DNA of 64,000 bases from Candidatus Dadabacteria bacterium (GCA_022827275.1 JAJDTG010000010.1:155641-219640), one strand, 5' to 3'. Positions 6,507 through 52,994 are shown, numbered from the stretch's first letter. Translations and numbers: made by a program. The notes: a model not told the origin generated them from the letters alone.

Positions 6507-7837
6507 TGAGCCAGACGCAGCAGACACCTTTAACTTACGCGAGAATAACTGAAGATGTAGTCAGGATGGTCGACAAGCCGTCCAAGAAGTGGTGGGCTCT
6601 TTTCCTTCCCACGGTGGCGCTCGTGGGTCTCGGCGTCATGTGCTTTTTCTACCAGGTAGCGGAGGGACTTGGAGTCGCCGGCTACCGTCACCCGGTTTTC
6701 TGGGGAGTCTACATAACCGATTTCGTTTTCTGGGTTGGAATAGCGCACTCCGGGACACTTATCTCGGCCATACTTTATCTGTTCCGCGCCAGATTCAGGA
6801 TGTCAATATACAGAATCGCCGAGGCAATGACAGTCTTTGCGGTTCTCACGGCGGGACTTTTCCCGATAATCCACCTCGGAAGACCGTGGAACTTCCTGTG
6901 GCTCATACCATATCCCAACTCAAGGGAGCTGTGGATAAACTTCAAGTCGCCGCTTGTCTGGGACGTGTTCGCGGTAAGTACTTACCTTACGGTAAGCTCG
7001 CTGTTTTTCGTGATCGGAATGATTCCCGATATAGCGGCAATAAGGGACAAGGTGAAAGAAGCTCCGAGAAAGATCATATACTCCATTCTTTCCTTCGGAT
7101 GGAAGGGGTCAAACAGGGAATGGCTCCATTATACAAGGGCCTATCTTTATTTTGCTGCCCTCGCCACGCCTCTTGTTCTCTCGGTTCACAGCGTTGTGTC
7201 CTGGGACTTCGCGATGGGTAACGTTCCCGGATGGCACACCACAATATTCCCGCCGTACTTCGTTGCGGGAGCTATTTTCTCGGGACTCGCGATGGTTATC
7301 ACTCTTACCATACCGATAAGAAAGATCTTCCATCTCGAGGACTACATCACCCTCGATAACTACGACGGCATGGCGAAACTCATAATTCTCACTTCCTGCA
7401 TAGTCGGCTACGCGTACGCTGCGGAATTCTTCATGGCGTGGTACAGCGGAAGTCCTTATGAGTGGGGACAGTTCGTTTACAGGGCAACTGGAGAGTATGC
7501 GCTTTTCTACTGGACGATGGTTATATGTAACTGCGTCGTTCCGATATCGCTGTGGTGGGAGAAGGTGAGAAAAAACATAAAGGCCCTTTTCGTCATTTCC
7601 ATACTGATAAACATAGGAATGTGGTTTGAACGCTTCAATATTATCGTCATATCCCTTTCCAGGGATTTTGAACCGGGTGCGTGGGGCATATACAAGATAT
7701 CGTTTGTCGAGGCCGGCATAACTATCGGAAGTTTCGCGTGGTTCTTCATGTTCTTCCTGCTGTTCGTGAAAACTCTTCCAGCAGTTTCAATAGCGGAGAT
7801 GAAGGAAATACTTCCGGTGCCGAAGAAAGGAGGTTAG
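6506..7837 (+). CDS. actC: Alternative Complex III subunit ActC (NrfD/PsrC-like polytopic membrane subunit)
   Basis: 443 aa, multi-TM and NrfD-like. Its start overlaps the actB stop (TAATG). Confidence 0.85.
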   Translation: MSQTQQTPLTYARITEDVVRMVDKPSKKWWALFLPTVALVGLGVMCFFYQVAEGLGVAGYRHPVFWGVYITDFVFWVGIAHSGTLISAILYLFRARFRMSIYRIAEAMTVFAVLTAGLFPIIHLGRPWNFLWLIPYPNSRELWINFKSPLVWDVFAVSTYLTVSSLFFVIGMIPDIAAIRDKVKEAPRKIIYSILSFGWKGSNREWLHYTRAYLYFAALATPLVLSVHSVVSWDFAMGNVPGWHTTIFPPYFVAGAIFSGLAMVITLTIPIRKIFHLEDYITLDNYDGMAKLIILTSCIVGYAYAAEFFMAWYSGSPYEWGQFVYRATGEYALFYWTMVICNCVVPISLWWEKVRKNIKALFVISILINIGMWFERFNIIVISLSRDFEPGAWGIYKISFVEAGITIGSFAWFFMFFLLFVKTLPAVSIAEMKEILPVPKKGG

Positions 7838-7843
7838 AAGGAA

Positions 7844-8350
7844 ATGAGCCAGGGCGTAGTCGGAATTTACTCATACCAGGATTCGGTTCTTTCGGCCGTA
7901 GAAAAACTCAAGGAGGCGGGTTATGGAGACATGAGGGTGTTCTCCCCGTTTCCCGACCACGAGATTGAGCATGCGGTTGATGCGCCTGAGAGTCCGGTGC
8001 GTTTTTTCACGCTCTTCGGAGGGTTGCTGGGAGCGACCTGCGGAATCGGTTTTACGGTTCTCACTTCAAGTGCCTGGCCGATAGCGGTGAGCGCCAAGCC
8101 CATAGTTTCGATAATTCCCTACATGGTCATCGTTTTTGAGCTTACGGTGCTTTTCGGAGCGCTTTCAACCTTTCTGGGGCTGATAATAAATTCCCTTATA
8201 AGGGAGAGAACCCCTGTGAGGCTTTATGACGAGCGTTTCTCAGATGACAAGTTCGGTGTCGCGGTTGTATGCGAGAAGGAGAAAATAGGTGCGGTCGAAG
8301 CGATATTAAATTCTACGGGAGCTGAAGAAATCAAGTTTGATGAAGCATAG
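7844..8350 (+). CDS. actD: Alternative Complex III subunit ActD (DUF3341-like)
   Basis: 168 aa. MSQGVVGIYSYQDSVLSAVEKLKEAGY is typical of ActD. AAAGGAGG precedes the start. Confidence 0.8.
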   Translation: MSQGVVGIYSYQDSVLSAVEKLKEAGYGDMRVFSPFPDHEIEHAVDAPESPVRFFTLFGGLLGATCGIGFTVLTSSAWPIAVSAKPIVSIIPYMVIVFELTVLFGALSTFLGLIINSLIRERTPVRLYDERFSDDKFGVAVVCEKEKIGAVEAILNSTGAEEIKFDEA

Positions 8351-8384
8351 AAACTTTTCTCGGACAGTTCTGGGTGGAGCTTTG

Positions 8385-8921
8385 GTGCCCAATTTATCTT
8401 TGAGGCTGAAAGTTTGCGTAGCGGTTATTTTTGCGGTCGCGCTTTCGCTCTCTTCCGCCCATTCGCTTCCCTGGTCTTGGGACATGTGGTCTCAGGATTC
8501 GATCAAGCCCTATGAGGAACCCGTGATTTTTCCGCGCAACTCGATTTCCACCGACGGCGAAAAAACCAAGCTTGAAGACAGGAACAAGGTCGAGCAGATA
8601 AAAAAAGGACCGATTCCCATAAGCGATGAGTCAGTAGCCAGGGGAGAGAAGGTTTTTAAAGAGCAATGCGTTGTGTGTCACGGTCCCGGGGGATTGGGAG
8701 ACGGAATCATAATAAAGAAAGGACTCGGTTTTTACCCGGTTAACCTTACCACGCCGGCCGTAGCGCAGAGAACCGACGGTTACATCTACGCCTATATACG
8801 CTACGGGGGCAAGGTTATGATGCCTTCTTACAGCGAGAACATATCGGAGCAGGACGCATGGCACGTGGTTAATTACGTGAGAAAGCTTCAAAACCCGGGT
8901 TCTGCCAAGGAGAATCAATAG
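8385..8921 (+). CDS. actE: Alternative Complex III subunit ActE, a monoheme cytochrome c
   Basis: It has a single CVVCH motif with a downstream Met ligand region. A signal peptide (RLKVCVAVIFAVALSLSSAHS) is present. I chose the GTG at 8385, which has GGTGGAG five nt upstream. Alternative in-frame starts at ATG 8340 or TTG 8337 are possible. Confidence 0.7.
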   Translation: MPNLSLRLKVCVAVIFAVALSLSSAHSLPWSWDMWSQDSIKPYEEPVIFPRNSISTDGEKTKLEDRNKVEQIKKGPIPISDESVARGEKVFKEQCVVCHGPGGLGDGIIIKKGLGFYPVNLTTPAVAQRTDGYIYAYIRYGGKVMMPSYSENISEQDAWHVVNYVRKLQNPGSAKENQ

Positions 8922-8925
8922 AAAA

Positions 8926-10104
8926 ATGGATCAGTCCATAAACCAGGAAATACTAGCGAAGAGAAACCAGATACCTAACTGGGTATTCATGGTTTTTGTT
9001 GCCCTTGCGGTTGTGGGCGCGGGGGCTTTCGTTATTAACGCTAGGGGAGAGAACGCTGAAGAGGTCTGGCAGCTTTTCCTGGTGAATTTTCTTTTCTGGA
9101 CGGGAGTCGCGCAGGGCGGGCTTGTGTTCTCCTGCATACTCAGGATAACCAACGCCAGGTGGGGAAGGGGGCTTCTTCGCATAAGCGAGGGTTTCGCGAG
9201 TTTTACGGTGGTCTCCTTAGTGCTCCTGCTGGTTCTTTTCATCGGAAAGGAATTTGTTCTTCCCTACGCGCATCACCACTACCACAGCCCCAAGGACATA
9301 TGGCTTAACGTAAATTTCGTGATGGCGAGAAACGTGATAGGTTTTGCGGGACTTTTAGTGCTCAATTATTTCTACCTGAAAACATCCATACGTCAGGATC
9401 TCGACGGCAGGGAAAACATCGTGAAGTTAAAGAAACTTGCCCCGGCCGTGATCGGGGTTTACGCCATTGTTTTCTCCCTCTTCGCCTGGGATTTTATGAT
9501 GTCGCTTGATCCTCACTGGTTCAGCACTCTTTTCGGTCCCTACTATTTCATGGGAAGCCTGATAGCCGCCATAGGGGCGACGATAATACTTTCGGTTCCC
9601 CTCAAGCGTTATCTGGGACTTGACGACTACCTGTCTGTTCATCATTACTGGGATATGGGAAAAATACTTCAGGGTTTTTCTCTTTTCTGGGTTTACCTGA
9701 TGTTCTCCCAGCTTCTTACGATCTGGTACGCGAACATGCCTGAGGAGACTGGGTTTGTTATAAAAAGGGTTGTGGACGAGCCTTTCCGCTCGTTTGCCTG
9801 GGCGATACTCACATGCTGCTTCATATTTCCTTTTGTCTCCCTGCTGCCCCGCTCACACAAGATAGTTACCCCGATAGCCGTTTTTATCGCCACGGTTTCT
9901 TTCTCGGGGCTCTGGATGGATAAATTCCTGCTGGTTATCCCTTCGCTTACAAACGAGCTGGTTTTCAGTATCAATCACTTCCTGATCACTCTCGGTTTTC
10001 TCGCTGGGTTCGTTGCAACATTTCTTCTGTTCATAAACAGGTTCCCGGTAATACCTTTCGGCGATCCTTACTTTGACGGCAAGTCAAAAGGAGGAGGGCA
10101 TTAA
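8926..10104 (+). CDS. actF: Alternative Complex III subunit ActF (NrfD-like membrane subunit, paralog of ActC)
   Basis: 392 aa and polytopic. AAGGAG precedes the start. It sits in the actF position after actE. Confidence 0.8.
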   Translation: MDQSINQEILAKRNQIPNWVFMVFVALAVVGAGAFVINARGENAEEVWQLFLVNFLFWTGVAQGGLVFSCILRITNARWGRGLLRISEGFASFTVVSLVLLLVLFIGKEFVLPYAHHHYHSPKDIWLNVNFVMARNVIGFAGLLVLNYFYLKTSIRQDLDGRENIVKLKKLAPAVIGVYAIVFSLFAWDFMMSLDPHWFSTLFGPYYFMGSLIAAIGATIILSVPLKRYLGLDDYLSVHHYWDMGKILQGFSLFWVYLMFSQLLTIWYANMPEETGFVIKRVVDEPFRSFAWAILTCCFIFPFVSLLPRSHKIVTPIAVFIATVSFSGLWMDKFLLVIPSLTNELVFSINHFLITLGFLAGFVATFLLFINRFPVIPFGDPYFDGKSKGGGH

Positions 10105-22906: not shown

Positions 22907-23359
22907 TCAGTTCGCCCGGGTACGGTACTTCGATTCGATTCCGGCCACTTTCTCTATGTTTTCCTTCTCAGAGGGGTCCGCTTCGCTCTGGAACCAAGCG
23001 TCAAGGATTTCCTTGGCTACGTCGGGGGATATCAGACGCAGGCTCATGGCGAGTATGTTCGCGTCGTTCCACATGCGTGCCCCCGCGGCCGTTTTTGAGT
23101 CCGTGCACAGGGCGGCCCGTATTCCGGGGACCTTGTTCGCGGCAATGCTTACCCCGGTCCCCGTCGAGCAGAACAGTATTCCCTGATCGCACTCTTTTTC
23201 AGAAACCCTCTCGGCCACCTGCTCGGCGACTTCGGCCCACTCGACGTTTTCGTCCGCAAGAGGCCCGAAGAGCTCAATTTCCATCTCTCTTTTGCGAAGC
23301 TCCTCTATTACCTCGTCGGTAAGAGCGTTTTTTTCATCACTTCCAACAGCGATTTTCAT
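22907..23359 (-). CDS. rpiB: Ribose-5-phosphate isomerase B (RpiB/LacAB family)
   Basis: MKIAVGSDE...ILFCSTGTGVSIAANKVPGIRAALC matches RpiB. Confidence 0.85.
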   Translation of the reverse strand: MKIAVGSDEKNALTDEVIEELRKREMEIELFGPLADENVEWAEVAEQVAERVSEKECDQGILFCSTGTGVSIAANKVPGIRAALCTDSKTAAGARMWNDANILAMSLRLISPDVAKEILDAWFQSEADPSEKENIEKVAGIESKYRTRAN

Positions 23360-23517
23360 CTTCAGGGTCTCCTTATTCCGAAATTAATTTATACCACAAC
23401 CCCCGTTTCGGACATTTAGATGCATTTCCTTTGAATACAACCATTCTAGTTGCTCAAGCTGAGATTTTAGCCCCGAAAACAAGAATAACAAGCCCCCCTC
23501 AATAGGCTTTCTCACTT

Positions 23518-23889
23518 CTAATATTCTCCTGTCAAAGCATCCCACTCAAAAGAGGTGAGAAAACGCTTATCAACAACAGCTATGCCGTTTATCTTACAAT
23601 CGGAATCAAATACGTATGCAATATTAAACAACGTAGGCTGTTTCTTGCCTTTTTTCTTGGCAACAGCGATTCGGATTATTCCCCCTTTTAAATTTTCATC
23701 AGACAACGGATCATTCCGAATCATTTTTAACCGTTCCCATCCTCCTTCCTCTTTTAAATGTTGAATGACCGCCGCCTCGGCAGTTTCAAGATCTTTTATC
23801 CCTTGACAGTGTTTTTGAACTGCCAAAGCGAAGATAGTACCTTCGCAAAGAAGAAATCCTGTCACGATCAATAGAATTAACCTTTTCAT
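23518..23889 (-). CDS. Small secreted hypothetical protein (signal peptide), inside the low-GC island
   Basis: 123 aa with an N-terminal signal peptide (MKRLILLIVTGFLLCEGTIFALA). I recognised no family. The local sequence is AT-rich. Confidence 0.35.
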   Translation of the reverse strand: MKRLILLIVTGFLLCEGTIFALAVQKHCQGIKDLETAEAAVIQHLKEEGGWERLKMIRNDPLSDENLKGGIIRIAVAKKKGKKQPTLFNIAYVFDSDCKINGIAVVDKRFLTSFEWDALTGEY

Positions 23890-24159
23890 GTTCGATACCT
23901 TCTCTCTTCCTATGCAGAGATTAGGTTGTAGAAACTAGTCCTGCCAAGATAAGGCAAAACCGTTCCTGTAATAATTCATTTTTCTATCTGTTTAAGAAGC
24001 AAACTCAAGCTCTAGCTCCCTTTAAAAAGAGTTTGGATTCTGAAGGTCTCGAATCGAAAATCATATCAACCTCATTTCCATATAAATCTATACCATTAAT
24101 ACGGCGGGAACACACTTAAAGAAAACGAAAAACTGTCTTAATGTAGTGGTACACTTCTT

Positions 24160-27100
24160 TCAGGATTTTGCAACATCAATTACACAGACTGATATCTTGC
24201 GTTGCTCGTCGGTCGTGAGGCTGTTAATTAATCGTTCTTTAAGCTCCATGGCACTTTGCGGACGTGTTCCCGATCCTGGGGGCCGACATGACTCTTTGCC
24301 AAACCAGAATACTAAATAGATGCCATAGCCATCTGTCTCTGGGTCACGGGTATATTTCGCAATCAGTTGGCTTTTTATTGCACTCCATAAATCTTGATTA
24401 TTGCTTCTTTTTATCTCGATTGGAATATTACACATAGCCTTGTATGCGATACGAATATCTGACCTCTTGTCATCTGCATAACGGCCTTCCGGTTGTGGAT
24501 CAATTCCTAATGGGTTGAGTTTTATTCTTAGGTCCGAAAGCAATATATCTCGACAGAAGTTTTCAATGCGGGGTTTTGCGGGCTTGTTTTCTGTATCCAT
24601 ATCCCAATATTGACGCCAGTCAGATGTGTTGCCATCACGGATGTTCTTAGCAAGGTCAGTCAAAATATCTATTGTCAGTGCTGACAGGTCCGCCGCATTT
24701 GCGGGGTTCTTGTTGTCTAGAGTTTCAAGTACCTGGTTGACGCTGAAATGGCTGAAACTGGCTTCGCGACGAGCTGACTTCTGTGTGCGAAGAGCCTCCG
24801 TGAGGTATTGTTTCCATGAGAGTAACTCGTCATCTGATGAGAGTCTTTCAAGTGCTTCAGTAGCGCTTGGCGATTGAATCGATGTCAGTTGCTGAATTAA
24901 TCTATGAACAAGATTTGCCGCTTCGGTCGATGGACTGACCCAACCGCTTTCCTCTGGGTCTGATAGCTTTGGTTTGTCAGAAGCTTCAATCAGTCTATAT
25001 TTGAACAGAAGTCCAAGCGCATCCTCGGGTGACAGCCAAGTGAAGGGTGATGAATGTCCGATTGTCCGAATCAGAAATTCCAGTGCCGGGACATCTAGGC
25101 GTTTGATCAGTTTATCCGGGAATTCTTTGATGCATTCCAGTAGATTTTTAACTCTAAGCTCTCGACCGGTTAGACATGTCTCTAATTTTTCAATAAAACT
25201 TGAAGGCGAAACGATAAGTCCGGCTGTAAGCCAGTAGACACGTTGGGCTATATCCATGCTAGAATAGGAGAGCTTTCTTTTGACTAATTTTAGGAAGGGT
25301 TCTTCATCGCAGTGAAGAAGTGCCGCTCTGAGCAGATAATTCAATCCCGACAGTTGCTGCTTAACGCATCGTACAGAAAATTTCTTCAGAAGTTGTAAAG
25401 TGGCAAGGTTCGCCGCTTTTGCGTAATCATCTCGGAACGCCAGTCTGTACAGATTTGAGAGAGTCTCTTTGCTTTTACGCATTCTAGATAGAGCACATGA
25501 GGTTAAAACATCTGAAACTATATCTGGATTGGACACAAGCAATTTCTGGTACCAAAGAGGATGGGAATTTAAGAAACTTGTCGGCAGTGGTGCGTTGTAA
25601 TAAAAAGCAATGGCTTGGCGCAACTGCTTTTCTTTAATGGGTATTTCTTCAAACTCAGGGTTGTTTCTGAATATCTCTTCCATGCCGGCTAAAAAGGGGA
25701 GTGCTAGATAATGTGCTTCATTGTTCTCTCTTAGCTGTATGATTTCAGCTTCATCCGGTATGTCGGAGCGAATAAGCGATTCCTGAAAAGCCTTGAGAAC
25801 TGTTTCTACTAGGTATTCATTGCCACCGAGAAAGTCGTGCAAGTGGTCTGCGGGGTTACCACTTGGAAAGTTTGCGTTTTCCCCGAAAAACACTCTGGCT
25901 AAGTTGTGGAGCAAACGCGGCGAGCATCGGTTTTCACTTAGTACTTCTTTGTGTGATTTCAGATAGTTGATCCGTTTAAGTAGTTCCTGTTGCTCTCTTG
26001 CTTTTTGTTCCTCGGTAAAATTTTCTTGCTGCCTTGATATATTACGGTAATTAGATTGCGATGCTAAGAGTAGCTGTTTAAGGTCGGGTTTGTCAGCAAG
26101 GGCTTCCTCAATAACTTCTTCAGAAAGCCCCTTATTGAAAATGTTGTTTTCTATAGTGTGAGCCGCCGTGTGCAGGAAAAATTTTTTGAAATTTTCGTCA
26201 GTTGAAGCTATTGCGTGCTTAAGGCACCAAAGTCCGAAGTCTTGTGGAGGAATACATTCGAGACCACGGTCTCTGAAAAGTCTCCGGTCGATTTCATGAG
26301 GTTTTACATCGTCGCATTTCATCCATTCTTCAAACACCGCCTTCTGCATTTCTGGATGATCGTTCAACCATGAACGAATTTCCATCTTGTGGCTACCCCA
26401 GTCCACAATCTGACAGTCCGATACGATCCAGAGCCAGATTGAGAAACGGTCCAGAGGAACTTGGTCCTCCGCCATAGCAAGGAATCTAGCTAACCAGGCT
26501 GGAAACACCGTGGAAAAGAAGCTGAATTGCTTTTTTTCGGTTTCGTATTCAGCGAAAAAACTGTCAGAACGTCCGTAAAGCCCGTCAAGCAACTCAGCAA
26601 GTTGAGTGGTTGTTGTTTGTTGTAATATATCTCTAAGCCAGAAGAACCTGTAACTTCCGCTAAGATTCGGGGCTTTTGGTTCTCTGAAATATTTCCAGAT
26701 ATCCGAAGAAGAAAGAATGTCTGGATAAAGCTCTTTAAGGAGAATTCCCAGCAGCTGATCATCTGGGTCTGATATCGACTCCGCATTCACGTCCTCTAAC
26801 AGATTTGTCATTTGAGTTAGGGAATGGTTGCCATTTTTTCCTTGTTGGATAAACGCACGGAGGGCGTTATCTCTGACATTCGGTGGCCAACTGTCATCTC
26901 TAACAATTTCCAGCAGAGCATCTCCAAGTTCAGGTATGGATGATCCGTGTTGAAGAGTTTCTAGCAGTAACCTGACAAGTGATTGTTGCGTATGGTTTCT
27001 TTCCGGATCAGTTAGAACGTTTTGAAAAAATTCCCGCACATCCGGCGTAGCCAGATATTCCAAGTGAGAATCATGTCCGATTAGCTGTGTATACCATGGA

Positions 27101-28317
27101 TTTTTCTTCGTTTCATCGGCTATATGGTTCAAAATTTGGTGCTTCTCATCAATGGAGAATCCCCAAACGTCACCATAGAGAATTGTTCCAAGTGGGTCAC
27201 GCTCGATAATCTCTCTTCTGCTTTGCGGACTGTGTGCCGCAAGCCAGGCAGAAAGACCGCGCAACTCAGACACAATTCCACCATCATATCCCGTCATCAA
27301 GGCGAGTACTCGTCTGACAGGAAGTCCCTCTTGTATTAGTTTTGCAAGATATTGTCCGCCTAGAAATTCGGCAACTTGTCTGTGGATTGGACTTACATGG
27401 GTTTCAGTGGGAGATTCAAAGGGAGATTCAAATAGCTTGGTGCTAAGCACATGGTGAAAAACTTCTTGGTCTTCGGTGTGTATTCTTTTCAGATGTATGT
27501 ATTCATGGCTTGTCTCGTTATGCGTGAGAGTGTATCCGGCATGACCGGTAAGAAGTTGTATTGCGCAAAGCCTTCCGGCTTCATTAAGCAAGCTGCGAAT
27601 ATCGCTAGAATAACGTTTAACTAATTCATGCCCTTGATTGTGTTCTTCAAGTAATTTACGGCAGGCGAGACCGAACGTTTCCATTCGGGTTTCCGGCCAA
27701 TTCCCGTCAGCAACTGCTGACGCCAGCATCTTGAGATTCTGGGGATTTACGAGCAAGATGCCGATTCCTTTTTCCTCAGCTGAAGCAACAAATAGTTCTG
27801 GATTATTAACGCCGTGGTTGCAACACAGAATTTTAAGGATGTCCTCGCGGGATAATGGGTCAAGGCGTAAAACCTTGAGCTTTCCGTCTGGTGACACATC
27901 TTTCAAATGATTTCTGTCGTTAGCTCCGAACCAGTCGGCTTCACGACAGGATAGACGGAAACGAGGACACCCTAAATCCTGAAGTTTTGCCCGAATTTGG
28001 TCAAAGGGTGTGCGCTGGTCGGACACTCCTGCACGCATTTCGTCGAGACCGTCAATAAACAATGTTGTTCCATGCCATTCAGGGCGATTTTCAAACGTGA
28101 TGAAGTTACGTGCAGTGACATAATGGCCTTCTTCTTGGGCTGCTTCTCTTTTAAATGCTTCCGTTTTTCCGGCACCTGGGGGACCGAGCAGCACGTAGCA
28201 ACTGTTGCCCCTGAATTCTTCCAACGGCATTGAAGAGGATCTATCGTCATGACTGCCGGTTTCAGGGATCTCGGTACATGTGCGGGGAGCAAAGTAATTC
28301 ATGATTTCTCGAACCAA
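24160..28317 (-). CDS. Large (1385 aa) STAND-type P-loop NTPase with NACHT-like motifs, a long alpha-helical repeat region and a C-terminal PD-(D/E)xK-like motif
   Basis: Walker A is LLGPPGAGKTE (about aa 40-50). A NACHT-like Walker B FIDGLDE follows, then RFRLSCRE, which is sensor-1-like (hhhhTSR). About 850 aa of helical repeats come next. The C-terminus reads ENFCRD…ADDKRSDIRIAYKAMCNIPIEIKRS (an E…D…ExK arrangement). Local GC is about 47%, against roughly 58-60% in the flanks. The start overlaps the upstream ATPase gene by 19 nt. Confidence 0.55.
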   Translation of the reverse strand: MVREIMNYFAPRTCTEIPETGSHDDRSSSMPLEEFRGNSCYVLLGPPGAGKTEAFKREAAQEEGHYVTARNFITFENRPEWHGTTLFIDGLDEMRAGVSDQRTPFDQIRAKLQDLGCPRFRLSCREADWFGANDRNHLKDVSPDGKLKVLRLDPLSREDILKILCCNHGVNNPELFVASAEEKGIGILLVNPQNLKMLASAVADGNWPETRMETFGLACRKLLEEHNQGHELVKRYSSDIRSLLNEAGRLCAIQLLTGHAGYTLTHNETSHEYIHLKRIHTEDQEVFHHVLSTKLFESPFESPTETHVSPIHRQVAEFLGGQYLAKLIQEGLPVRRVLALMTGYDGGIVSELRGLSAWLAAHSPQSRREIIERDPLGTILYGDVWGFSIDEKHQILNHIADETKKNPWYTQLIGHDSHLEYLATPDVREFFQNVLTDPERNHTQQSLVRLLLETLQHGSSIPELGDALLEIVRDDSWPPNVRDNALRAFIQQGKNGNHSLTQMTNLLEDVNAESISDPDDQLLGILLKELYPDILSSSDIWKYFREPKAPNLSGSYRFFWLRDILQQTTTTQLAELLDGLYGRSDSFFAEYETEKKQFSFFSTVFPAWLARFLAMAEDQVPLDRFSIWLWIVSDCQIVDWGSHKMEIRSWLNDHPEMQKAVFEEWMKCDDVKPHEIDRRLFRDRGLECIPPQDFGLWCLKHAIASTDENFKKFFLHTAAHTIENNIFNKGLSEEVIEEALADKPDLKQLLLASQSNYRNISRQQENFTEEQKAREQQELLKRINYLKSHKEVLSENRCSPRLLHNLARVFFGENANFPSGNPADHLHDFLGGNEYLVETVLKAFQESLIRSDIPDEAEIIQLRENNEAHYLALPFLAGMEEIFRNNPEFEEIPIKEKQLRQAIAFYYNAPLPTSFLNSHPLWYQKLLVSNPDIVSDVLTSCALSRMRKSKETLSNLYRLAFRDDYAKAANLATLQLLKKFSVRCVKQQLSGLNYLLRAALLHCDEEPFLKLVKRKLSYSSMDIAQRVYWLTAGLIVSPSSFIEKLETCLTGRELRVKNLLECIKEFPDKLIKRLDVPALEFLIRTIGHSSPFTWLSPEDALGLLFKYRLIEASDKPKLSDPEESGWVSPSTEAANLVHRLIQQLTSIQSPSATEALERLSSDDELLSWKQYLTEALRTQKSARREASFSHFSVNQVLETLDNKNPANAADLSALTIDILTDLAKNIRDGNTSDWRQYWDMDTENKPAKPRIENFCRDILLSDLRIKLNPLGIDPQPEGRYADDKRSDIRIAYKAMCNIPIEIKRSNNQDLWSAIKSQLIAKYTRDPETDGYGIYLVFWFGKESCRPPGSGTRPQSAMELKERLINSLTTDEQRKISVCVIDVAKS

Positions 28318-29573
28318 TCCTTTGCCGGCACCGACAAAAATTCTTCAATCGGGATTCCGCCTTCGCCGACCAGTTCGCAGCGCAGAGGGTTGAACCGTTT
28401 CTCAAACTCTTCCAGTCCACTCATGTTTACTTGCTTTAGACTGCTTTTGACTTCAAAAGCAACAATCTTGGAACCCCGTTCCAGAACGAAATCCACCTCG
28501 TAATTCTTATCCCTCCAGTAATAGAGATGGACATTATCCCGTATTCCTGTGTTGAACAGATGGGCGCCTACTGTGCTTTCGACAAGACGTCCCCAAAAAC
28601 TGCGGTCCGCTTTTGCCTCTTCAAAGGTGTATCCTGAAGAGGCTGACATAAGCGCGGTGTTAAGAACGTTAAGCTTAGGACTTGACGCCTTGCTGCGGGA
28701 AACGCCGCCCGCATACTTCTGAAGACCGGAAATAAGTCCTGCATTTGAGAGTAAGTCCAGATAGTGGGCCAAAGTTGTCGTGTTGCCGGCGTCTTTGAGC
28801 TGGCCGAGCATTTTATTGTATGAAAGTATCTGGCCTGAATACGCCGCGCCTAGTTCAAAAAGTCTTTTTAATAAAGCGGGTTTGTCCACGCGTCGCATCG
28901 CAAGGATATCGCGCTCGATGTTGGGTTCAACCAGAGCGCCGGTAATATACCGTTGCCAGTCTTCCTGCTTTTGAATTAACGGAGCTCCGCCTGGATAACC
29001 TCCAAAATAGATGTAGCTCTGCAGATCAAAATCAAACGCCGAGGACATCTCCGCAAATGACCAGTGAGCGAGATGTATAGGGAAAAAGCGTCCGGCCAGA
29101 CTTTCGCTTAACCCCGTCTGCATAATCAGGGGAGCGGAACCGAGCAAAACGACATGAAGGGGACAGTCATTCCATTTGTCCTCGTCCCACAAACCCTTAA
29201 CGGTTTCCGACCAGTTGGGGATTTTCTGGATTTCGTCAAACACAAGAATAAACCCGCGTTCCGAACGCCTAGCCTCTCTTCTGGCTTGTTCCCACCTGCG
29301 TACGAGCCACCTTGAATCCTTTTCCACGCTTATTGAGATGCTGGTTTCATCCGGTGTGGTAATTGAATCTTGTTCTGTATCTGGCAACGGATAGAAGGCG
29401 GTTGATTCGGGTTTGTCTACGGGCAGATATAGACTGCGCAGGTCGCATTGATACAGCGCTTGGCGAATAAGAGTGGTTTTGCCTGACTGACGGGGGCCGG
29501 TAATAATTGTAAGGAGTTTGGGTGCCTCGTTCAGGCGTTCGACGAGATCTGATATTATAGGTCGTTCGTACAT
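28299..29573 (-). CDS. AAA_14 / DUF4143-type ATP-binding protein (P-loop ATPase with a C-terminal restriction-endonuclease-like DUF4143 domain)
   Basis: 424 aa. The Walker A motif reads IITGPRQSGKTTLI, Walker B is ILVFDEIQKIP, and the C-terminus reads YEVDFVLERGSKIVAFEVKSS. This is the widespread AAA_14+DUF4143 architecture. The gene is low in GC. Confidence 0.6.
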   Translation of the reverse strand: MYERPIISDLVERLNEAPKLLTIITGPRQSGKTTLIRQALYQCDLRSLYLPVDKPESTAFYPLPDTEQDSITTPDETSISISVEKDSRWLVRRWEQARREARRSERGFILVFDEIQKIPNWSETVKGLWDEDKWNDCPLHVVLLGSAPLIMQTGLSESLAGRFFPIHLAHWSFAEMSSAFDFDLQSYIYFGGYPGGAPLIQKQEDWQRYITGALVEPNIERDILAMRRVDKPALLKRLFELGAAYSGQILSYNKMLGQLKDAGNTTTLAHYLDLLSNAGLISGLQKYAGGVSRSKASSPKLNVLNTALMSASSGYTFEEAKADRSFWGRLVESTVGAHLFNTGIRDNVHLYYWRDKNYEVDFVLERGSKIVAFEVKSSLKQVNMSGLEEFEKRFNPLRCELVGEGGIPIEEFLSVPAKDWFEKS

Positions 29574-29586
29574 TTCCGTGGATTGA

Positions 29587-29622
29587 ATTACTCTATTGAG
29601 AACTTTTACTCAATAGAGTAAT
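29587..29622. promoter_or_regulatory. Perfect 14-bp inverted repeat (ATTACTCTATTGAG-N8-CTCAATAGAGTAAT), 14-49 nt upstream of the ATPase gene start; candidate operator or 5'UTR structure
   Basis: Read directly from the sequence. The arms lie at 29587-29600 and 29609-29622. Confidence 0.4.
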
Positions 29623-29921
29623 TCATGTATGAGTAAAGTCAAATCACAAACTACGTTCCCGTAAATTTCTCGATAATTAGCACGGTCGAAGCAGCAGCTC
29701 GTGTTTATAAGAAAAGCAGCTTCTTATCCTAACCAGCGTCCGGTTTTCTCACCTGTCCGCACATCTGACTTGAGCAGGACCATTTGACGAATTTAATTTA
29801 ATTCTTGAGTATCTTTATCTGAGACTGGTTAGGCAGTTCAATCTCGAAATGCCCCAGGCGCACGAAGTCGTAAAAGCGCTACTTTAAGGACATAAAAATC
29901 TGAACATGCGAGGTAGAAGAT

Positions 29922-31826
29922 ATGTTCCACCGGCGAGATTCACAAGGTTATATCGGTACCGACAATCCTTCATATCGTGAACTTGGAGGGGGTTGTACTG
30001 CTTACTCACAAAGGCGATGGCAGAAGTCATGTGGCCGGGTCGGAGTTTTTCTCGTTGCCCTTGCCGTTTTCGCGACACTGACTTTGCTTGCCTGCTTGGA
30101 CGACAGCGACCGCCCGAGCAGCATTGCCGATCAGCTCAGAAGCAATGCCGAGGCGTTTGAGTACACGGCTGGGAAGACTGGCGGGACACTGACGATTGCG
30201 ACCATTTCAGAGCCGCTTACCCTGAACCTGGCTCTTGCGGACGATTCCGGATCGACAGGAGTTCTGGGGTATCTCTTCGAGGGTCTGACCGAGGTCTCCT
30301 GGCTCACTGACGAAGTCGAACCGTCGCTTGCCGAGTCCTGGACCCATTCGGATGACGGTCTGACCTGGACTTTCTCACTGCGCAAGGACGTGACGTGGCA
30401 CGACGGAACACCTTTTACGGCGCGTGACGTGGAATTCACCTTCAACCGCATCATCTACAACGAGGAAATAAACTCCAGCAGCCGGGCAACATTCAACTTC
30501 CGGTTTCTTGACGAAGCTACCGGAACTTGGACGGAAGCCGAGATGACCGTTACGGCGCTTGACGACTATACGATACAGTGCGTTTTACCGGTGTCGTTTG
30601 CACCGTTTTTGCGCTCCATGGGTACCGCTATCTATCCCAAGCATATTCTGGAGCCGTACGTGGACGATGGCACTTTCAACGAAGTATGGGACATTGACAC
30701 TGACCCGGCCGAAATCATCGGCACCGGTCCCTTTACCATTGAGCGCTATGTCCCCAAAGAACGCGTGGTCCTGAGCCGCAACCCGAACTACTGGCTAAAG
30801 GATGATGCGGGCAGCAGTCTGCCGTACTTGGACAAAGTCGTTCACTTTATCGTCCCGGACCTCAAGACTGAACTTGCCAGGTTCAAGGAAGGAGACTCAG
30901 ACATTCATGGCGTGCTGGGCAGGGAGTTTGCGGAACTCGAACCGCTGCAGGCGGAGGGGAATTTCACGATCTACAGGAGAGGTCCGGCCTTAGGATCGAC
31001 ATTTTTGACCTTTAACCTGAATCTTGGCGAAAACCCGGATACAATGGAGCCGTATGTAGCGGCTGACAAGCTTAAGTGGTTCCGGAATACTCAGTTCCGT
31101 CGGGCTGTCGCGCACATCGTTGATAAAGAGGCGATCATACGCGACGTACATCACGGTCTCGGCTACCCGCAGTGGTCCTCCATCAGTCCGTCCGCGGGTG
31201 ACTTCCACAATCCCGACGTGCGGCGGTACGAATACGACATCGCCGAAGCCAACCGCATCCTAGATAGCCTCGGCTGGGTTGATACCGACGGGGACGGGAT
31301 TCGCGAAGACGATTCGGGCAATACGATTGAGTTCTCAATGGTAACCAATACCCAAAACAGCGTACGTGAAAGGGTTGGGATGATCGTCCAGCAGGGCCTC
31401 GAGGAGATCGGCGTCAAGGCGGATTTCAGGCTGGTCGCGTTCAGCGAACTCGTCTCCCAGTTGACACGTTCCTATGACTGGGAAGCCATGGTCATGGGTT
31501 TCGGAGGCGGAACGGATCCGCATGGCGGAATTGTTCTCTGGCACAGCAGTGAGAACTTGCACCTTTGGTATCCGAATCAGCCGCAGCCGACTACGGACTG
31601 GGAAGCCGAAATAGACCGCCTTTACGTGAGGGCGAGCCAGGAACTGGATCGCGATGAACGCGTAGCCCTCTACCACCGCGCCCAGGAGGTCGCTTCCGAG
31701 AACATGCCGCTCATCTACACGACACGTGGGGAGCGGATGAGTGCGGTCCGAAACGTCTTCGGCAACACGACGCCCACGCTTTACGGGCTTTGGGATATTC
31801 GCTACCTTTATCGAACCGATCTATAG
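29922..31826 (+). CDS. ABC transporter substrate-binding protein, family 5 (oligopeptide/nickel type), probable lipoprotein
   Basis: The SBP_bac_5-like core reads LTIATISEPLTLNLALADDSGS...LFEGLTE...WTFSLRKDVTWHDGTPFTARDVEFTFNRI. A lipobox-like LTLLAC lies at about aa 55, after an Arg-rich leader. The start is uncertain. Confidence 0.7.
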   Translation: MFHRRDSQGYIGTDNPSYRELGGGCTAYSQRRWQKSCGRVGVFLVALAVFATLTLLACLDDSDRPSSIADQLRSNAEAFEYTAGKTGGTLTIATISEPLTLNLALADDSGSTGVLGYLFEGLTEVSWLTDEVEPSLAESWTHSDDGLTWTFSLRKDVTWHDGTPFTARDVEFTFNRIIYNEEINSSSRATFNFRFLDEATGTWTEAEMTVTALDDYTIQCVLPVSFAPFLRSMGTAIYPKHILEPYVDDGTFNEVWDIDTDPAEIIGTGPFTIERYVPKERVVLSRNPNYWLKDDAGSSLPYLDKVVHFIVPDLKTELARFKEGDSDIHGVLGREFAELEPLQAEGNFTIYRRGPALGSTFLTFNLNLGENPDTMEPYVAADKLKWFRNTQFRRAVAHIVDKEAIIRDVHHGLGYPQWSSISPSAGDFHNPDVRRYEYDIAEANRILDSLGWVDTDGDGIREDDSGNTIEFSMVTNTQNSVRERVGMIVQQGLEEIGVKADFRLVAFSELVSQLTRSYDWEAMVMGFGGGTDPHGGIVLWHSSENLHLWYPNQPQPTTDWEAEIDRLYVRASQELDRDERVALYHRAQEVASENMPLIYTTRGERMSAVRNVFGNTTPTLYGLWDIRYLYRTDL

Positions 31827-46792: not shown

Positions 46793-48061
46793 TTAACGGT
46801 CGGGGTTATTTTTAATCTGTTTTTCAACAAGCTTTGCGCGTCTTTCTATAATGGAGCATATATCCGCGAAGATCGGGGATTTCCCCACCTCTTTCTCAAG
46901 AGAGCTTCTGAGCGCGGGAGCGTTTTCAAGGCAACTCCGCGCGGTGGTGAGGAGCAGCTCCTCGAGATTTTTTCTGGCAACCGCGGTATCGGGAACGAGT
47001 CGGCGCCAGTCTCTTGGGAATATCCTTTCCGGATCGTACCTCTTGCCGATCTTCATAGCCATTTTTCTTGACAGCCGCGAATAAACGGCCGTGTTCAGCA
47101 GATCGTAGGACGGGGCAAGTTCGGGTTTTCTTGCCCTGTAGAGAAGCGAGAAATTCTTTGCGTGCGCGTCCGCGTTGCCGATCAGGTAGTTGAATATCAC
47201 TTTTTTCAGAAAATCGAGTTGATCCGCGGCGGGTCTCAGGCTGTGCCCTCTCAGCAGTTCCATGCAGCTGGATATGCCGGGTCCCCCTTCGCGTTCATAT
47301 CTAATGTCCGGGGCGATACCCAGAGCCTGGCAGAAATCCTCCTGGTGCAGCCTTTTCGTAAGACCTTCTTTGTCCGTCACTCGGTCGTAACGCTCCACAA
47401 GCAGGTAAGGTACATCATCTGACCATCCCGCTCCAACTTCCGGAGTCTCAATTCCGACCAGATGAGCAAGGCGCATGCAGAACAGTTCATTCTGCACGGT
47501 ATCTTTTAAATCACCGACCGCGGGCTTCAGTATATGGGTTGTCGGAACGGTGCCTCTCACAAGGGCGATCTTTCCGTCTTTTACGCTTACGGCGATTTTG
47601 TCCTGAGCCCCGGCGAGCGACATGCGTAATCCATCGTAGTCCGCAAGCAGCGGCCGTTGTTCAAGTAACCTCAGGATTTCGCTCAGTTTCCTCTCGTCAA
47701 GGATTTCCACGTCCCCTTCGTTTTCTTCGGGGGGTCTTGCGCCGCTGGGATATAAGGATACGGCTCCCGCGCACTCGCCGCCTACGGCTTCCAGCAGGGC
47801 GAAAACGTTGCCTTCGGAAATTCCAAGGTACCCGGCCAGCCTGTGCCGCACGATATCGTCGGGCAGGAATCCTGAAAAAAACGCCTTTACCGCGTTTCCT
47901 TCATAGGTCCCTTTCCCTAGAGGAAGAGATATGGACAGTGAGGGGCGGTCTGCTTCCAGGTATCCGGCATCGTAGGAGAACAGCAGTTCGGCGGAACCAC
48001 GGGGCGAGAAGAGTTGACCGGCACAGATTCCATGCAGGTAAACATCGAGAATCCGGTTCAT
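46793..48061 (-). CDS. hipA: HipA-family serine/threonine kinase toxin (type II TA)
   Basis: HipA N- and C-terminal domains are present. The catalytic motif reads YLIGNADAHAKNFSLLY, and VSLAGAQDKIAV matches the HipA P-loop-like motif. It overlaps hipB by 4 nt. Confidence 0.8.
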   Translation of the reverse strand: MNRILDVYLHGICAGQLFSPRGSAELLFSYDAGYLEADRPSLSISLPLGKGTYEGNAVKAFFSGFLPDDIVRHRLAGYLGISEGNVFALLEAVGGECAGAVSLYPSGARPPEENEGDVEILDERKLSEILRLLEQRPLLADYDGLRMSLAGAQDKIAVSVKDGKIALVRGTVPTTHILKPAVGDLKDTVQNELFCMRLAHLVGIETPEVGAGWSDDVPYLLVERYDRVTDKEGLTKRLHQEDFCQALGIAPDIRYEREGGPGISSCMELLRGHSLRPAADQLDFLKKVIFNYLIGNADAHAKNFSLLYRARKPELAPSYDLLNTAVYSRLSRKMAMKIGKRYDPERIFPRDWRRLVPDTAVARKNLEELLLTTARSCLENAPALRSSLEKEVGKSPIFADICSIIERRAKLVEKQIKNNPDR

Positions 48062-48282
48062 ATGTCCCCGTGTCCTTTGACTGAAATGTCCATACCCAGC
48101 ATCCTTACGACTTTCAGTGACTTGCCGAGGTGGCAGGACTCCTTTCCCCGCTCAAGTTCGCGGACGAACCTTGTTCCGACTCCGCAGGCGGCCGCAAGCT
48201 GTTCCTGAGTCAGCCCCTGATCTTTCCTGACTTTGCGTATGGTCTCGCCAAGTTGTCTAACGTTGTTGATGAGTAAGTTCAT
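48058..48282 (-). CDS. hipB: HipB-like XRE-family HTH antitoxin
   Basis: 74 aa. IRKVRKDQGLTQEQLAAACGVGTRFVRELERGK is an XRE HTH. It sits immediately upstream of hipA and is translationally coupled to it. Confidence 0.75.
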   Translation of the reverse strand: MNLLINNVRQLGETIRKVRKDQGLTQEQLAAACGVGTRFVRELERGKESCHLGKSLKVVRMLGMDISVKGHGDI

Positions 48283-48283
48283 G

Positions 48284-48349
48284 AATCATCCCTTTCGGGT
48301 TTATTTTATCATGAAACAAGGCAAATGCAATAAAATCATCCCTTTCAGG
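48284..48349. promoter_or_regulatory. Two direct repeats AATCATCCCTTTC(G/A)GG spaced 50 bp apart, immediately upstream of hipB; candidate HipB operator sites
   Basis: The copies lie at 48284-48299 and 48334-48349 and match at 15 of 16 positions. The region is AT-rich and TCATGA palindromes are nearby. Confidence 0.35.
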
Positions 48350-48572
48350 ACTATTTTAGATATTCAAAAAGATTTCGGGGAACAATGCTCCCGATCGGGA
48401 TGAATTTCTCTGTGATCAAAGCTTTTTTCTTTCCCGTTAAGGGTGTATTCACTCGGGTTAAACGAACGACACATGTGATCTTAACGATTGATTCATAATT
48501 ACTATTTGTATTGAATGGTAAGAAGGCTATAAAATGAGCCTAGAGATATTTGCTAGTTGGAGGTGAAAGCAC

Positions 48573-48926
48573 ATGCATGTAAAAAGAATTGACGATATAG
48601 AAAGTGAGGTCCTGGAGTCGGGAAGCGGCGTTTCAAGACAGATGCTCATAGGTCCCGAGGAGGGTCCTAATTTCTCTATGAGAAAGCTTGTCATTGAACC
48701 CGGGGGCGGCATTCCCGCTCATACAAGTAGCGCCGAGCATGAGCAGTATGTTCTTGGCGGCACGGCCAGGGTTGGAATCGGGGACCAGGTTTATGAAGTG
48801 GCGAAGGGCGACGTGGTCTTTATCCCCGCCGGAGAACTGCACTGGTATGAAGCTTACGGAGAGGAATCTTTTGAGCTTCTGTCGGTTCTGCCGAATAAAG
48901 ACACCGAGATGGTTTTCGCAAAATAG
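48573..48926 (+). CDS. Cupin-domain protein, copy 1
   Basis: 117 aa. A single cupin_2 barrel (GGGIPAHTSSAEHEQYVLGG...GDVVFIPAGELHWY). Confidence 0.7.
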   Translation: MHVKRIDDIESEVLESGSGVSRQMLIGPEEGPNFSMRKLVIEPGGGIPAHTSSAEHEQYVLGGTARVGIGDQVYEVAKGDVVFIPAGELHWYEAYGEESFELLSVLPNKDTEMVFAK

Positions 48927-49046
48927 CCGCTCCGGAAAAGACAGGAAAGACCGATGCTCGCTCGTTAAGGTCAGCTGGGACTGCATATAATTCCCCTAAA
49001 TGTCTATGGAACAATCCGTCTTCTCTGTGCTATAATAAAAAACACC

Positions 49047-49400
49047 ATGTATGTAAAAAAGGTTAAAGAAGTAGAGAGTACGATTATCGGAGCAGGACAG
49101 GGTACTTCAAGGCAGGTTCTCATTAGTCCGGAGGAAGGACCGAACTTCGCAATGAGAAAGTTTGTTATGCAGCCTGGAGGCGATATCCCCGCTCATACCA
49201 ATGCCGTTGAGCACGAGCAGTATGTGCTTGGAGGCAAGGCGCGTATTGGAATCGGAGATGAAGTGTATAACGTCGAGAAGGATGATGTGGTCTTTATTCC
49301 CGCCGGGGTTCCCCACTGGTATGAAGTCGAGGGTGAGGAGCCTTTTGAGTTTCTGTGCCTTGTGCCGAATCTTGAAGACAAGATAGAGCTTATAAAATAA
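49047..49400 (+). CDS. Cupin-domain protein, copy 2 (tandem paralog, about 75% identical to copy 1)
   Basis: 117 aa. Same motifs (GGDIPAHTNAVEHEQYVLGG...DDVVFIPAGVPHWY). Confidence 0.7.
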   Translation: MYVKKVKEVESTIIGAGQGTSRQVLISPEEGPNFAMRKFVMQPGGDIPAHTNAVEHEQYVLGGKARIGIGDEVYNVEKDDVVFIPAGVPHWYEVEGEEPFEFLCLVPNLEDKIELIK

Positions 49401-49423
49401 TCGTGCTTGGGACCAACTGAATC

Positions 49424-49515
49424 TGGCGGAGAGAGTGGGATTCGAACCCACGAGGGAGCGTAAACCCCCTACACGCTTTCCAGGCGTGCACCTTCGGCCA
49501 CTCGGTCATCTCTCC
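49424..49515 (-). tRNA. tRNA-Ser (anticodon GGA), type II with a long variable arm
   Basis: The minus strand reads GGAGAGATGACCGAGTGGCCGAAGGTGCACGCCTGGAAAGCGTGTAGGGGGTTTACGCTCCCTCGTGGGTTCGAATCCCACTCTCTCCGCCA. The anticodon loop is CTGGAAA. Confidence 0.85.
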
Positions 49516-49637
49516 GTGTTATTCTTGATGACACTACAAGTTGTCATTTTTTCGGGAGTTTTATAAACAATTTCCCGCGGTTCGTGAAAAACCCTCTCTA
49601 GTTTAACAAGAGAATTGGTGTTTGTTAAACTATCAAA

Positions 49638-50174
49638 ATGCCAGAGAAATGGAAACTTCAAAAGAGCACTCCGCTTAACGACTACAGAATCTTTTCAACG
49701 AAAAAGAAAAGCGCCATCTCGCCCGAAGATGGCGCCGTCCATGACTTCTACGTGATGGACGCTCCCGACTGGGTTAACATTATCCCCGTTACGCCCTCTG
49801 GTGAAATAGTTCTTATAAACCAGTTTCGCCACGGCACTGGGGAGATCACGCTTGAGATTCCGGGCGGAATGATTGACCCGGGGGAAAGCCCTGTTGAGTG
49901 CGCGCGCAGGGAACTCCTTGAGGAAACGGGATTTACCTCCACCCGGTGGAAGCAGATAGGATGCGTCAGGCCGAACCCTGCATTCATGTCAAATTCCTGC
50001 TTTACCTTTCTGGCATCTGACTGTGAGCGGACGTCGGAACCGTCTTTTGACACTACAGAAGACATAGAAACCTTGCTTGTCTCTCCGCGGGAGATAAAAC
50101 GATACATAAGGGAAGGCACCATAGATCACTGCATAGTGATAGCGGCGTTCGGGTTTTACTTTCTCGGGGAGTGA
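49638..50174 (+). CDS. NUDIX hydrolase (ADP-ribose pyrophosphatase-like)
   Basis: The Nudix box reads GGMIDPGESPVECARRELLEETGF. Confidence 0.8.
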   Translation: MPEKWKLQKSTPLNDYRIFSTKKKSAISPEDGAVHDFYVMDAPDWVNIIPVTPSGEIVLINQFRHGTGEITLEIPGGMIDPGESPVECARRELLEETGFTSTRWKQIGCVRPNPAFMSNSCFTFLASDCERTSEPSFDTTEDIETLLVSPREIKRYIREGTIDHCIVIAAFGFYFLGE

Positions 50175-50224: not shown

Positions 50225-50308
50225 GGGCGGGTGGCGGAATAGGTAGACGCGACGGCCTCAAAAGCCGTTGGGCTTTAGCCCGTGAGGGTTCGATTCCCTC
50301 TCCGCCCA
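50225..50308 (+). tRNA. tRNA-Leu (anticodon CAA), type II; CCA not encoded
   Basis: GGGCGGGTGGCGGAATAGGTAGACGCGACGGCCTCAAAAGCCGTTGGGCTTTAGCCCGTGAGGGTTCGATTCCCTCTCCGCCCA. The anticodon loop is CTCAAAA. Confidence 0.8.
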
Positions 50309-51497: not shown

Positions 51498-51648
51498 TTT
51501 GAATACCTTCCTTTCGATCTAAAATATTCAGACAGTAAAGTTAGTACATGATCTGCATATTTTCAAACCGCAAACGCAACTTTCCCGTCAGTTAAGAAAA
51601 GGGAATTTCCCTGGAATTGGAATAACCGGATTCTTAGTTTCCTGGGAA

Positions 51649-51852: not shown

Positions 51853-52011
51853 TGCAATACCTACCTCTAAAAAATTTAATATCTGCGGGATTATTCCACA
51901 GCTATATTGCTTTGTCAAACTGTACTTCCTCCTTCTCCAGGAAAAATTCTGGATTCGGAGGAATATACAGTAGTTCTCAAAGCGTTTCGCGTTATACCTG
52001 CGTATATCTCA

Positions 52012-52030: not shown

Positions 52031-52031
52031 C

Positions 52032-52985: not shown

Positions 52986-52994
52986 CCGCGGCAG

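Follow-up and report, generated by a model that had tools for sequence, protein, structure and literature searches.

The stretch of low GC (guanine plus cytosine) content examined here lies at positions 23360-29920 of a 64-kb length of a Dadabacteria metagenomic scaffold (the window), between rpiB and a solute-binding protein (SBP) gene. We consider it very probable that this stretch carries an old two-gene anti-phage module which has been patchily kept in a variable gap between core genes and shuffled there by recombination, rather than being a fresh insertion. The module comprises a gene for an ATPase with AAA_14 and DUF4143 domains, followed by a gene for a large STAND protein that resembles EruA of the Erebus system. 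The stretch as a whole is made up of three separate units, namely a small secreted ORFan, the operon of the ATPase and EruA-like genes, and native intergenic DNA. An earlier reading of this DNA (the original prediction) had listed its content as a small secreted open reading frame (ORF) plus a two-gene ATPase/NTPase module, and ORF calls and domain searches agree with that description.

In terms of composition, the stretch stands out clearly from its surroundings. Its GC content is 44.7%, against 51.6% for the remainder of the window, and it falls below all 886 other segments of the same size (6.56 kb), for which the minimum is 48.9% (z = -5.5). When viewed in 1-kb bins, the GC fraction drops from 0.50-0.56 to 0.43-0.46 at 23-28 kb, the next two bins (28-29 and 29-30 kb) having 0.49 and 0.46, and in 5-kb windows the tetranucleotide distance is ~23 over the stretch compared with 9-14 elsewhere, or about twice the background. 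The suggestion that the stretch is AT-richer than both flanks therefore holds as a significant deviation, both in sliding GC and in tetranucleotide composition. The dip is uneven between genes, with GC3 (GC at third codon positions) values of 0.36 for the small ORF, which encodes 123 amino acids (aa), 0.42 for the gene encoding the 1380-aa EruA-like protein and 0.52 for the ATPase gene, compared with 0.58-0.66 for rpiB, asd, dapA, the SBP gene (0.66) and etfA. Profile searches against Pfam, PADLOC, NCBIfam and PHROG found no integrase or transposase domain in the three ORFs of the stretch, and there is no tRNA or tmRNA gene at either border, the nearest being two tRNA-Pro genes at 19.1-19.4 kb, some 4 kb off. 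A search of the borders for short direct repeats revealed no flanking repeat or target-site duplication, the edges sharing only matches of 12-13 nt that are of chance size, and the sole strong repeat it returned was an internal palindrome (29584-29625) which lies directly upstream of the ATPase gene. Rfam families gave nothing credible in 23000-30200 (best E = 0.47). The lack of an integrase, transposase, border tRNA or flanking direct repeats was thus correctly anticipated. We have rejected an integrase-mediated genomic island, which is without an integrase or recombinase, a border tRNA or att site, and direct repeats here; only the deviant composition and the patchy presence among relatives fit it.

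The locus was compared across about 30 related Dadabacteria genomes, with relatives drawn from a scan using Asd that yielded ~27 species of metagenome-assembled genomes, which have Asd proteins 81-97% identical and carry the label Candidatus Dadabacteria or Thermodesulfobacteriota. In all relatives compared there is a conserved frame in which n340-n270-etfA-etfB is followed by a variable segment and then by rpiB-asd-znr-dapA. The divergent intergenic gap between etfB and rpiB is therefore a variable hotspot with fixed core borders and interchangeable cargo. The gap is empty (309-565 bp) in L012, L021, L022, L023, L027 and L029, and holds only the SBP gene, abutting rpiB at a distance of ~280-370 bp, in L005, L007, L011, L014, L016, L017 and L024, with split or truncated versions of that gene in L006 and L010. 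Parts of the module are found in L013 (SBP gene and ATPase gene), L018 (SBP gene, small ORF and a 12-aa ATPase stub), L019 (ATPase gene, a ~35-aa EruA stub and a DDE transposase of the DDE_Tnp_1 family at 7771-9237), L020 (an ATPase pseudogene) and L030 and L031 (a divergent ATPase gene alone). Other cargo includes rve and Mutator transposases (L025, 6352-9091), an IS1595 transposase beside a type IIG restriction-modification enzyme (L026, 2505-6679), a 1134-aa leucine-rich repeat protein (L015, 5722-9126) and an S41/PDZ peptidase (L008). The proposal that the stretch is accessory between rpiB and the SBP gene is supported by these data, given that the two genes are contiguous in seven relatives and that rpiB abuts etfB in six. 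Core-genome defence hotspots that lack mobility genes of their own are known from the pangenomes of E. coli and Pseudomonas aeruginosa. The gap studied here resembles them in its fixed core borders, in a cargo of defence genes, insertion sequences (IS) and accessory genes, in having no integrase and in turning over by recombination and deletion. It differs in belonging to uncultured Dadabacteria, in being a divergent promoter gap and in the small size of its cargo (one to three genes).

Several lines of evidence speak to the age of the module at this site. The closest homologues of the EruA-like protein in a collection of 5.8 billion sequences (86, 86, 71 and 64% identity) come from other Dadabacteria and occupy the same site. 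The pair of genes is present there in at least six other lineages (L085/L086, L087, L088, L089/L090, the JGI contigs L098-L101 and the more distant L102), and among the same-site carriers for which it was determined (the window/L001, L085, L087, L088 and L089) the EruA-like gene has a GC content of 43-45%, against 50-55% for the flanks. Module carriers are scattered among non-carriers in a tree of seven flanking genes. Decayed palindromes, in which the invariant hexamer is mutated, can be recognised at empty or SBP-only sites (L005, L014, L017, L022-L027), and the spacing between the palindrome and block 2, a segment of ancestral rpiB-upstream sequence that marks the other edge of the module, varies (30 bp, 140 bp, or 254 bp together with 36 bp of ATPase coding sequence). 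There are at least three such junctions and, because they differ, they represent independent deletion scars. In L019 an IS is located where EruA has been cut to its ~35-aa stub. Site-specific excision at the palindrome was considered as a means of loss and rejected, since the deletion junctions differ between lineages.

These data bear directly on the notion that a single ~6.5-kb island arrived recently between rpiB and the SBP gene, disrupting a transporter operon. Such an event would account for the real GC dip and tetranucleotide shift, for the adjacency of rpiB and the SBP gene in seven relatives and for the presence of the stretch in all contigs of the window's own population. It is, however, difficult to square with the same pair at the same site in six or more lineages, where EruA identity (64-86%) broadly falls as core divergence rises, or with the scars and decayed palindromes in sites that appear empty. 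Furthermore, among relatives each of the three components (small ORF, operon and SBP gene) comes and goes independently of the others, which also argues against the original view of one insertion; the SBP gene is an orphan in all relatives with its leader conserved; and direct repeats, an integrase and a bordering tRNA are all missing. We regard a single recent insertion that disrupted an operon as very improbable, the synteny data having largely refuted it. The idea of a foreign insertion therefore survives in part: the stretch is compositionally foreign and its presence is a real indel relative to most relatives, but at least six lineages carry the same genes at the same locus with the same low GC, and these, along with the scars, show that it is not a recent gain.

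Taking the module as an old resident of the gap, its sequence relationships are at odds with those of the core genes. Pairwise nucleotide identities for the core genes, ATPase gene and EruA are 86.8, 92.2 and 70.4% between L098 and L089, 92.4, 87.1 and 78.5% between the window and L098, and 91.2, 90.7 and 89.2% between the window and L085, whilst L030 and L031, from which EruA is absent, share 88.0% in the core and 58.9% in the ATPase gene. The window EruA allele is itself a mosaic, with residues 1-400 nearest to L088 (79-91%) and residues 401-1380 nearest to L085 (86-98%), and the module trees are incongruent with the core-gene tree. IS elements occupy the same gap in some lineages. Given that no mobility gene or repeats are present, homologous recombination via the conserved flanks and within genes, together with recurrent deletion, is the simplest mechanism; the original prediction had considered the means of mobilisation unclear, and the mosaic alleles and incongruent trees now favour this explanation. 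The module would then be an old polymorphism of the clade that was acquired from a donor of lower GC, kept in a few lineages and deleted independently in others, and homologous recombination would reshuffle it between species with no entry by an integrase.

The low GC of the module points to an original donor of lower GC. It could alternatively be intrinsic to, or selected in, an ancestral and vertically inherited gene that has never been horizontally transferred, and the finding that EruA has 43-45% GC in all five same-site carriers measured, despite 8-14% core divergence, would be in line with this. Family members elsewhere are not AT-rich, however, and instead track the GC content of their hosts (50.8% for L091, from a Dadabacteria genome, and 53.5-55.7% for L092 and L093). 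The incongruence of the module trees with the core tree, the mosaic alleles and the lack of the module from most members of the clade also count against strict vertical inheritance, and we consider it improbable.

For the larger of the two proteins the ATG at 28302 is the most likely start codon; it yields a product of 1380 aa (an alternative ORF reading gives 1385 aa) and is also the call made in the public contig. The alignment of this protein to the NCBIfam model 'NACHT domain-containing antiphage protein EruA' (NF058535) spans positions 8-1317 of the 1318 in the model, with 943.8 bits, and the protein matches the HyoA model more weakly. EruA and HyoA represent the Erebus and Hypnos systems, which have been grouped together with bNACHT64 under the name Avs10; for this STAND family, major capsid proteins of phages, which have the HK97 fold, were shown to be the trigger (Nature 2026, PMC13581612); the source cited for Erebus is van den Berg et al. 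2024, Cell Host Microbe 32:1427 (as cited in PMC13581612). The NTPase belongs to the NACHT clade and is followed by a long middle region with weak HEAT matches only (E = 0.015-0.2). This middle is the most variable part of the protein across alleles, as expected for a sensor. The fold of the C-terminal domain is closest to BamHI/BglII-like enzymes and Can2, and in 28 homologues there is no variation at D1282, E1296 or K1298, nor in the DGLDE sequence of Walker B or the glycines and lysine of Walker A. PADLOC is silent on this protein, and likewise on the small ORF, because its 2023 library predates Erebus. PHROG searches gave no phage family and one spurious P-loop match to a terminase, a scan of a viral contig collection with the EruA-like protein produced no match, and a metagenome scan returned four contigs only, all representing the same Dadabacteria locus. 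One homologue, P0067, was considered as a sensor-swapped variant and rejected, being a full-length homologue with an internal deletion of ~100 aa.

The likeness to Erebus/Avs10 therefore extends to full-length alignment with the EruA model, an N-terminal NACHT NTPase, a long and putatively helical middle, a conserved C-terminal nuclease-fold domain and a variable, defence-rich context. Differences are also apparent, in that the window protein scores below the equivalog cut-off of the model, shares only 26-35% identity with plasmid-borne EruA homologues and, unlike the single-gene Erebus/Avs10 system, is preceded by a coupled DUF4143 ATPase gene and a palindrome, both of which are absent from the four plasmid homologues examined. 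Compared with Avs/AVAST proteins that have nuclease effectors (SeAvs3 and SeAvs7), it shares the combination of a STAND NTPase, a sensor of (here putative) helical repeats and a PD-(D/E)xK nuclease (PMC13581612), but the nuclease of Avs3 and Avs7 is N-terminal and of the Cap4 type, whereas that of the window protein is C-terminal with a BamHI/BglII-like or Can2 fold. Avs proteins that have been characterised oligomerise once the target is bound, and the nuclease is then activated (PMC13581612).

The 424-aa protein encoded upstream matches Pfam AAA_14 (E = 3.6e-22) and DUF4143 (E = 7e-31), both above the cut-offs, and its residues 1-421 of 424 match the PADLOC model PDLC04791 for PDC-S01 with 548.2 bits. 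Its translation contains the Walker A motif GPRQSGKTT, the Walker B motif ILVFDEIQ and a D...EVK motif (EVDFVL...AFEVKSS) in a PD-(D/E)xK-like C-terminus; DUF4143 has been counted among the PD-(D/E)xK families (PMC3424549). In its AAA_14 + DUF4143 (COG1373-type) architecture, its end-to-end match to PDLC04791 and its intact D...EVK motif, this protein is much like PDC-S01. PDC-S01 is nevertheless defined as a single-gene candidate, whilst the gene considered here opens a conserved operon in which the second of the two genes encodes a STAND protein. The start of the ATPase gene (29560-29575) was seen to toggle between two in-frame positions, with ATG GAA ACA or ATG GAA ATG in the relatives L085, L088 and L089; in the window it reads ACG GAA ATG, the upstream ATG having been lost.

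The linkage between the two genes is constant in the contexts examined. For EruA-like genes of at least 46% identity, a DUF4143 ATPase gene encoding 421-430 aa lies directly upstream in ten out of ten contexts, four of which are at unrelated loci in other genomes (L091, L092, L093 and L103). At the junction there is a 4-bp overlap in five contexts, as in the window, where the EruA-like ATG overlaps the ATPase stop codon (ATGA); in four others the final base of the ATPase stop codon is also the first base of the EruA-like gene, and in L102 a gap of 3 bp is found. The ATPase is the better conserved of the two proteins, with 90-91% identity compared with 64-86% for EruA inside the clade, and 66-69% compared with 47-53% outside it. 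This arrangement indicates that the two genes form a co-inherited operon. Plasmid homologues from Pantoea, Vibrio and Bradyrhizobium (26-35% identity; four examined) have no ATPase neighbour within 3.5-4 kb and, as these distant homologues are solo, the linkage is a property of a subfamily. The pairing is not mentioned in the literature searched, which did not extend to the original Erebus paper.

Two of the unrelated loci deserve a brief description. L091 is a second pair (host GC, 53% identity) in the genome of L012, on a contig of 2,276,242 bp, and the etfB|rpiB gap of that genome is itself empty; the pair lies between the pterin-4a-carbinolamine dehydratase and HPPK genes, near an HTH (helix-turn-helix) + SocA/Panacea-domain gene. 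In L103, a 4.2-Mb contig, the pair is flanked on one side by the gene for a VapE-like primase and on the other by a restriction gene of the DpnII/MboI type, and appears to be on a mobile or satellite-like island.

The palindrome provides a further common feature. In the window it reads TTAC.CTATTGAG-N8-CTCAATAG.GTAA (29584-29625), and it is conserved directly 5' of DUF4143 ATPase genes, including those in unrelated loci and taxa. It was found in eight of the eight contexts read for it (in partial form in L092), among them the unrelated loci L091, L093 and L103, and TTGAG is invariant in the palindromes of intact modules. Its conservation at unrelated loci means that the palindrome belongs to the module, of which it is probably the conserved cis element, with a predicted role as promoter/operator; it may also be a general cis element of the ATPase subfamily. 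As read from the alignment, the hexamers TTGAGT-17-TAAnnn lie inside the palindrome only a few bases 5' of the start codon, a placement which suggests a near-leaderless transcript and an operator that would overlap the promoter. Block 2 aligns to the sequence directly 5' of rpiB in the empty and SBP-only relatives, where it reads TTGACC-17-TATTAT and so looks promoter-like.

It may be asked whether the DUF4143 ATPase-nuclease is itself the mobility function of a selfish cassette, acting in a homing- or transposition-like manner with the palindrome as its recognition site. That the palindrome accompanies the gene at unrelated loci, that an ATPase and a PD-(D/E)xK-like domain are combined in one protein and that no other mobility gene is present could all be taken in this sense. 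Each module has only one palindrome, however, with no second end, terminal inverted repeats or target duplications; the junctions differ between lineages, the window contains a single copy, and the viral contig collection scanned contains no match. We therefore think a selfish cassette extremely improbable.

If the module does function in defence, then its action can be pictured by analogy with Avs10. A promoter embedded in the palindrome would probably drive a near-leaderless transcript, which would encode the AAA_14/DUF4143 ATPase-nuclease and then, coupled through the ATGA overlap, the EruA-like protein of NLR type. The putatively helical middle of the latter would most likely bind a conserved phage protein, which from its homology with Avs10 is probably the major capsid protein. 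Binding would lead to NACHT-driven oligomerisation, oligomerisation may switch on the C-terminal PD-(D/E)xK nuclease, and the activity of this nuclease would be expected to abort the infection. The ATPase could contribute by acting as a co-effector, by licensing the response or, as a regulator, by binding the palindrome. We tentatively extend this to a large clade of Erebus/Avs10-like sensors, which may, as a possibility rather than the expected outcome, be an obligate two-component system in which the two proteins depend upon one another, the DUF4143 ATPase-nuclease serving as regulator, licensing factor or second effector under a palindromic promoter/operator.

A number of observations weigh against reading these genes as a two-gene anti-phage module. 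The score of 943.8 bits for the larger protein is below the NF058535 equivalog cut-off of 1000; other members of the DUF4143-linked clade score 896-939, and a solo homologue from a Bradyrhizobium plasmid scores 1034.8, above the cut-off. Pfam returned nothing significant for the 1380-aa protein or for its N- and C-terminal pieces, and a sequence-profile search of the PDB gave chance hits only. The trigger and the phage protection proposed for the DUF4143-linked subfamily are drawn from Avs10. A consensus promoter scan made no call at the window palindrome, in which TAATTC makes a poor -10 hexamer. That the low GC has persisted in species with 8-14% core divergence is accounted for only by presumed slow amelioration and allele exchange. 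In addition, the 5.8-billion-sequence collection yielded more than 4495 EruA-like homologues, of which the ten contexts where linkage was observed are a small sample, and a single clade and locus supplied six of the ten. Finally, the ATPase gene is intact without EruA in L013, L030 and L031, and so may be an independent unit rather than a partner.

This last point leads to the explanation that two independent single-gene defence systems, PDC-S01 and Erebus, simply sit side by side with no functional partnership. PADLOC does list PDC-S01 as a single-gene candidate, and the distant plasmid homologues of EruA, including the one that exceeds the cut-off, manage without an ATPase neighbour. On the other hand, the two genes keep the same order and overlap or abut in all ten contexts, leaving no promoter-sized gap between them, and they share the palindrome in the eight contexts read, as well as their linkage at four unrelated loci where identities have dropped to 47-53% for EruA and 66-69% for the ATPase. 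We consider independence unlikely, whilst giving it appreciable weight.

In kind, the object described here is an ordinary one, being defence cargo in a recombination-driven core-genome hotspot, and it serves as a reminder that deviant GC need not signal recent arrival. The one respect in which it is less ordinary is the constant linkage of a DUF4143 ATPase with an Erebus-like protein, together with the palindrome, and this could point to a function for an uncharacterised ATPase family that is very widespread. Should the two-component reading prove true, PDC-S01 would gain a functional context for the first time, and bacterial NLR immunity would be seen to include a mode that depends on a partner. 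Mosaic sensor alleles, scars and replacements at one locus across ~30 uncultured Dadabacteria species also illustrate how NLR-like receptors diversify by recombination. The features of the region are collected in Table 1.

Table 1. Features in and around the low-GC stretch, numbered from the first nucleotide of the window.
Feature	Position	Strand	Evidence and remarks
rpiB	22907..23359	-	Pfam LacAB_rpiB E = 8.7e-41; fixed core border of the variable gap; adjoins asd in all relatives
Terminator-like hairpin, just 3' of small ORF	23490..23509	-	Consensus scan only; no evidence of function
123-aa ORFan with N-terminal signal peptide	23518..23889	-	Clade-restricted
Block 2, ancestral rpiB-upstream promoter-like sequence	23990..24112		rpiB-side edge of module indel
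Operon including cis element	~24113-29625		
EruA-like STAND protein gene, 1380 aa	24160..28302	-	NCBIfam NF058535 alignment
C-terminal PD-(D/E)xK nuclease-fold domain, ~aa 1200-1380, presumed effector	24163..24705	-	
NACHT NTPase module, aa 1-430	27013..28302	-	Walker A GPPGAGKT, Walker B FIDGLDE
424-aa AAA_14 + DUF4143 ATPase gene, first in operon	28299..29573	-	Pfam, PADLOC
Perfect palindrome, 17-nt arms, 8-nt spacer	29584..29625		Inverted repeat, 100% complementary; 10 nt 5' of ATPase start codon
Orphan family-5 solute-binding lipoprotein gene (SBP)	29922..31826	+	Pfam SBP_bac_5 E = 5e-81; followed by etfB, etfA

Searches with the small ORF against Pfam, NCBIfam, PADLOC and PHROG gave no family match. 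The 5.8-billion-sequence collection yielded just five homologues of it, some of them truncated to 68 or 102 aa, and the one with a traceable contig (P0123) belongs to the genome of the relative L018. By tblastn it was detected only in loci of this clade, both without the module (L018) and with it (L085-L087). Since it lies between block 2 and rpiB and is also present without the operon in L018, the small ORF represents a separate indel. It may be co-transcribed with rpiB or interrupt the rpiB leader.

The SBP gene, in turn, is an accessory occupant of the same gap. It has host-like GC, is an orphan in every relative that possesses it and is absent from many others, and in L006 and L010 it is split or truncated, as noted above. 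Its long Arg-rich N-terminal leader (29922-30100), which had been thought odd and taken together with the orphan state as a relic of a disrupted transporter operon, is kept among orthologues with an RR motif, a hydrophobic stretch and an LLAC lipobox. From these motifs the leader is predicted to be a lipoprotein signal of the twin-arginine type, and its conservation, together with the orphan state in all carriers and the absence of the gene from many relatives, leads us to discard the relic interpretation.

Elsewhere in the window, other mild GC dips (0.46-0.49) occur at 48000-50000 and 51000-53000, near tRNA-Ser (49424-49515) and tRNA-Leu (50225-50308) genes.

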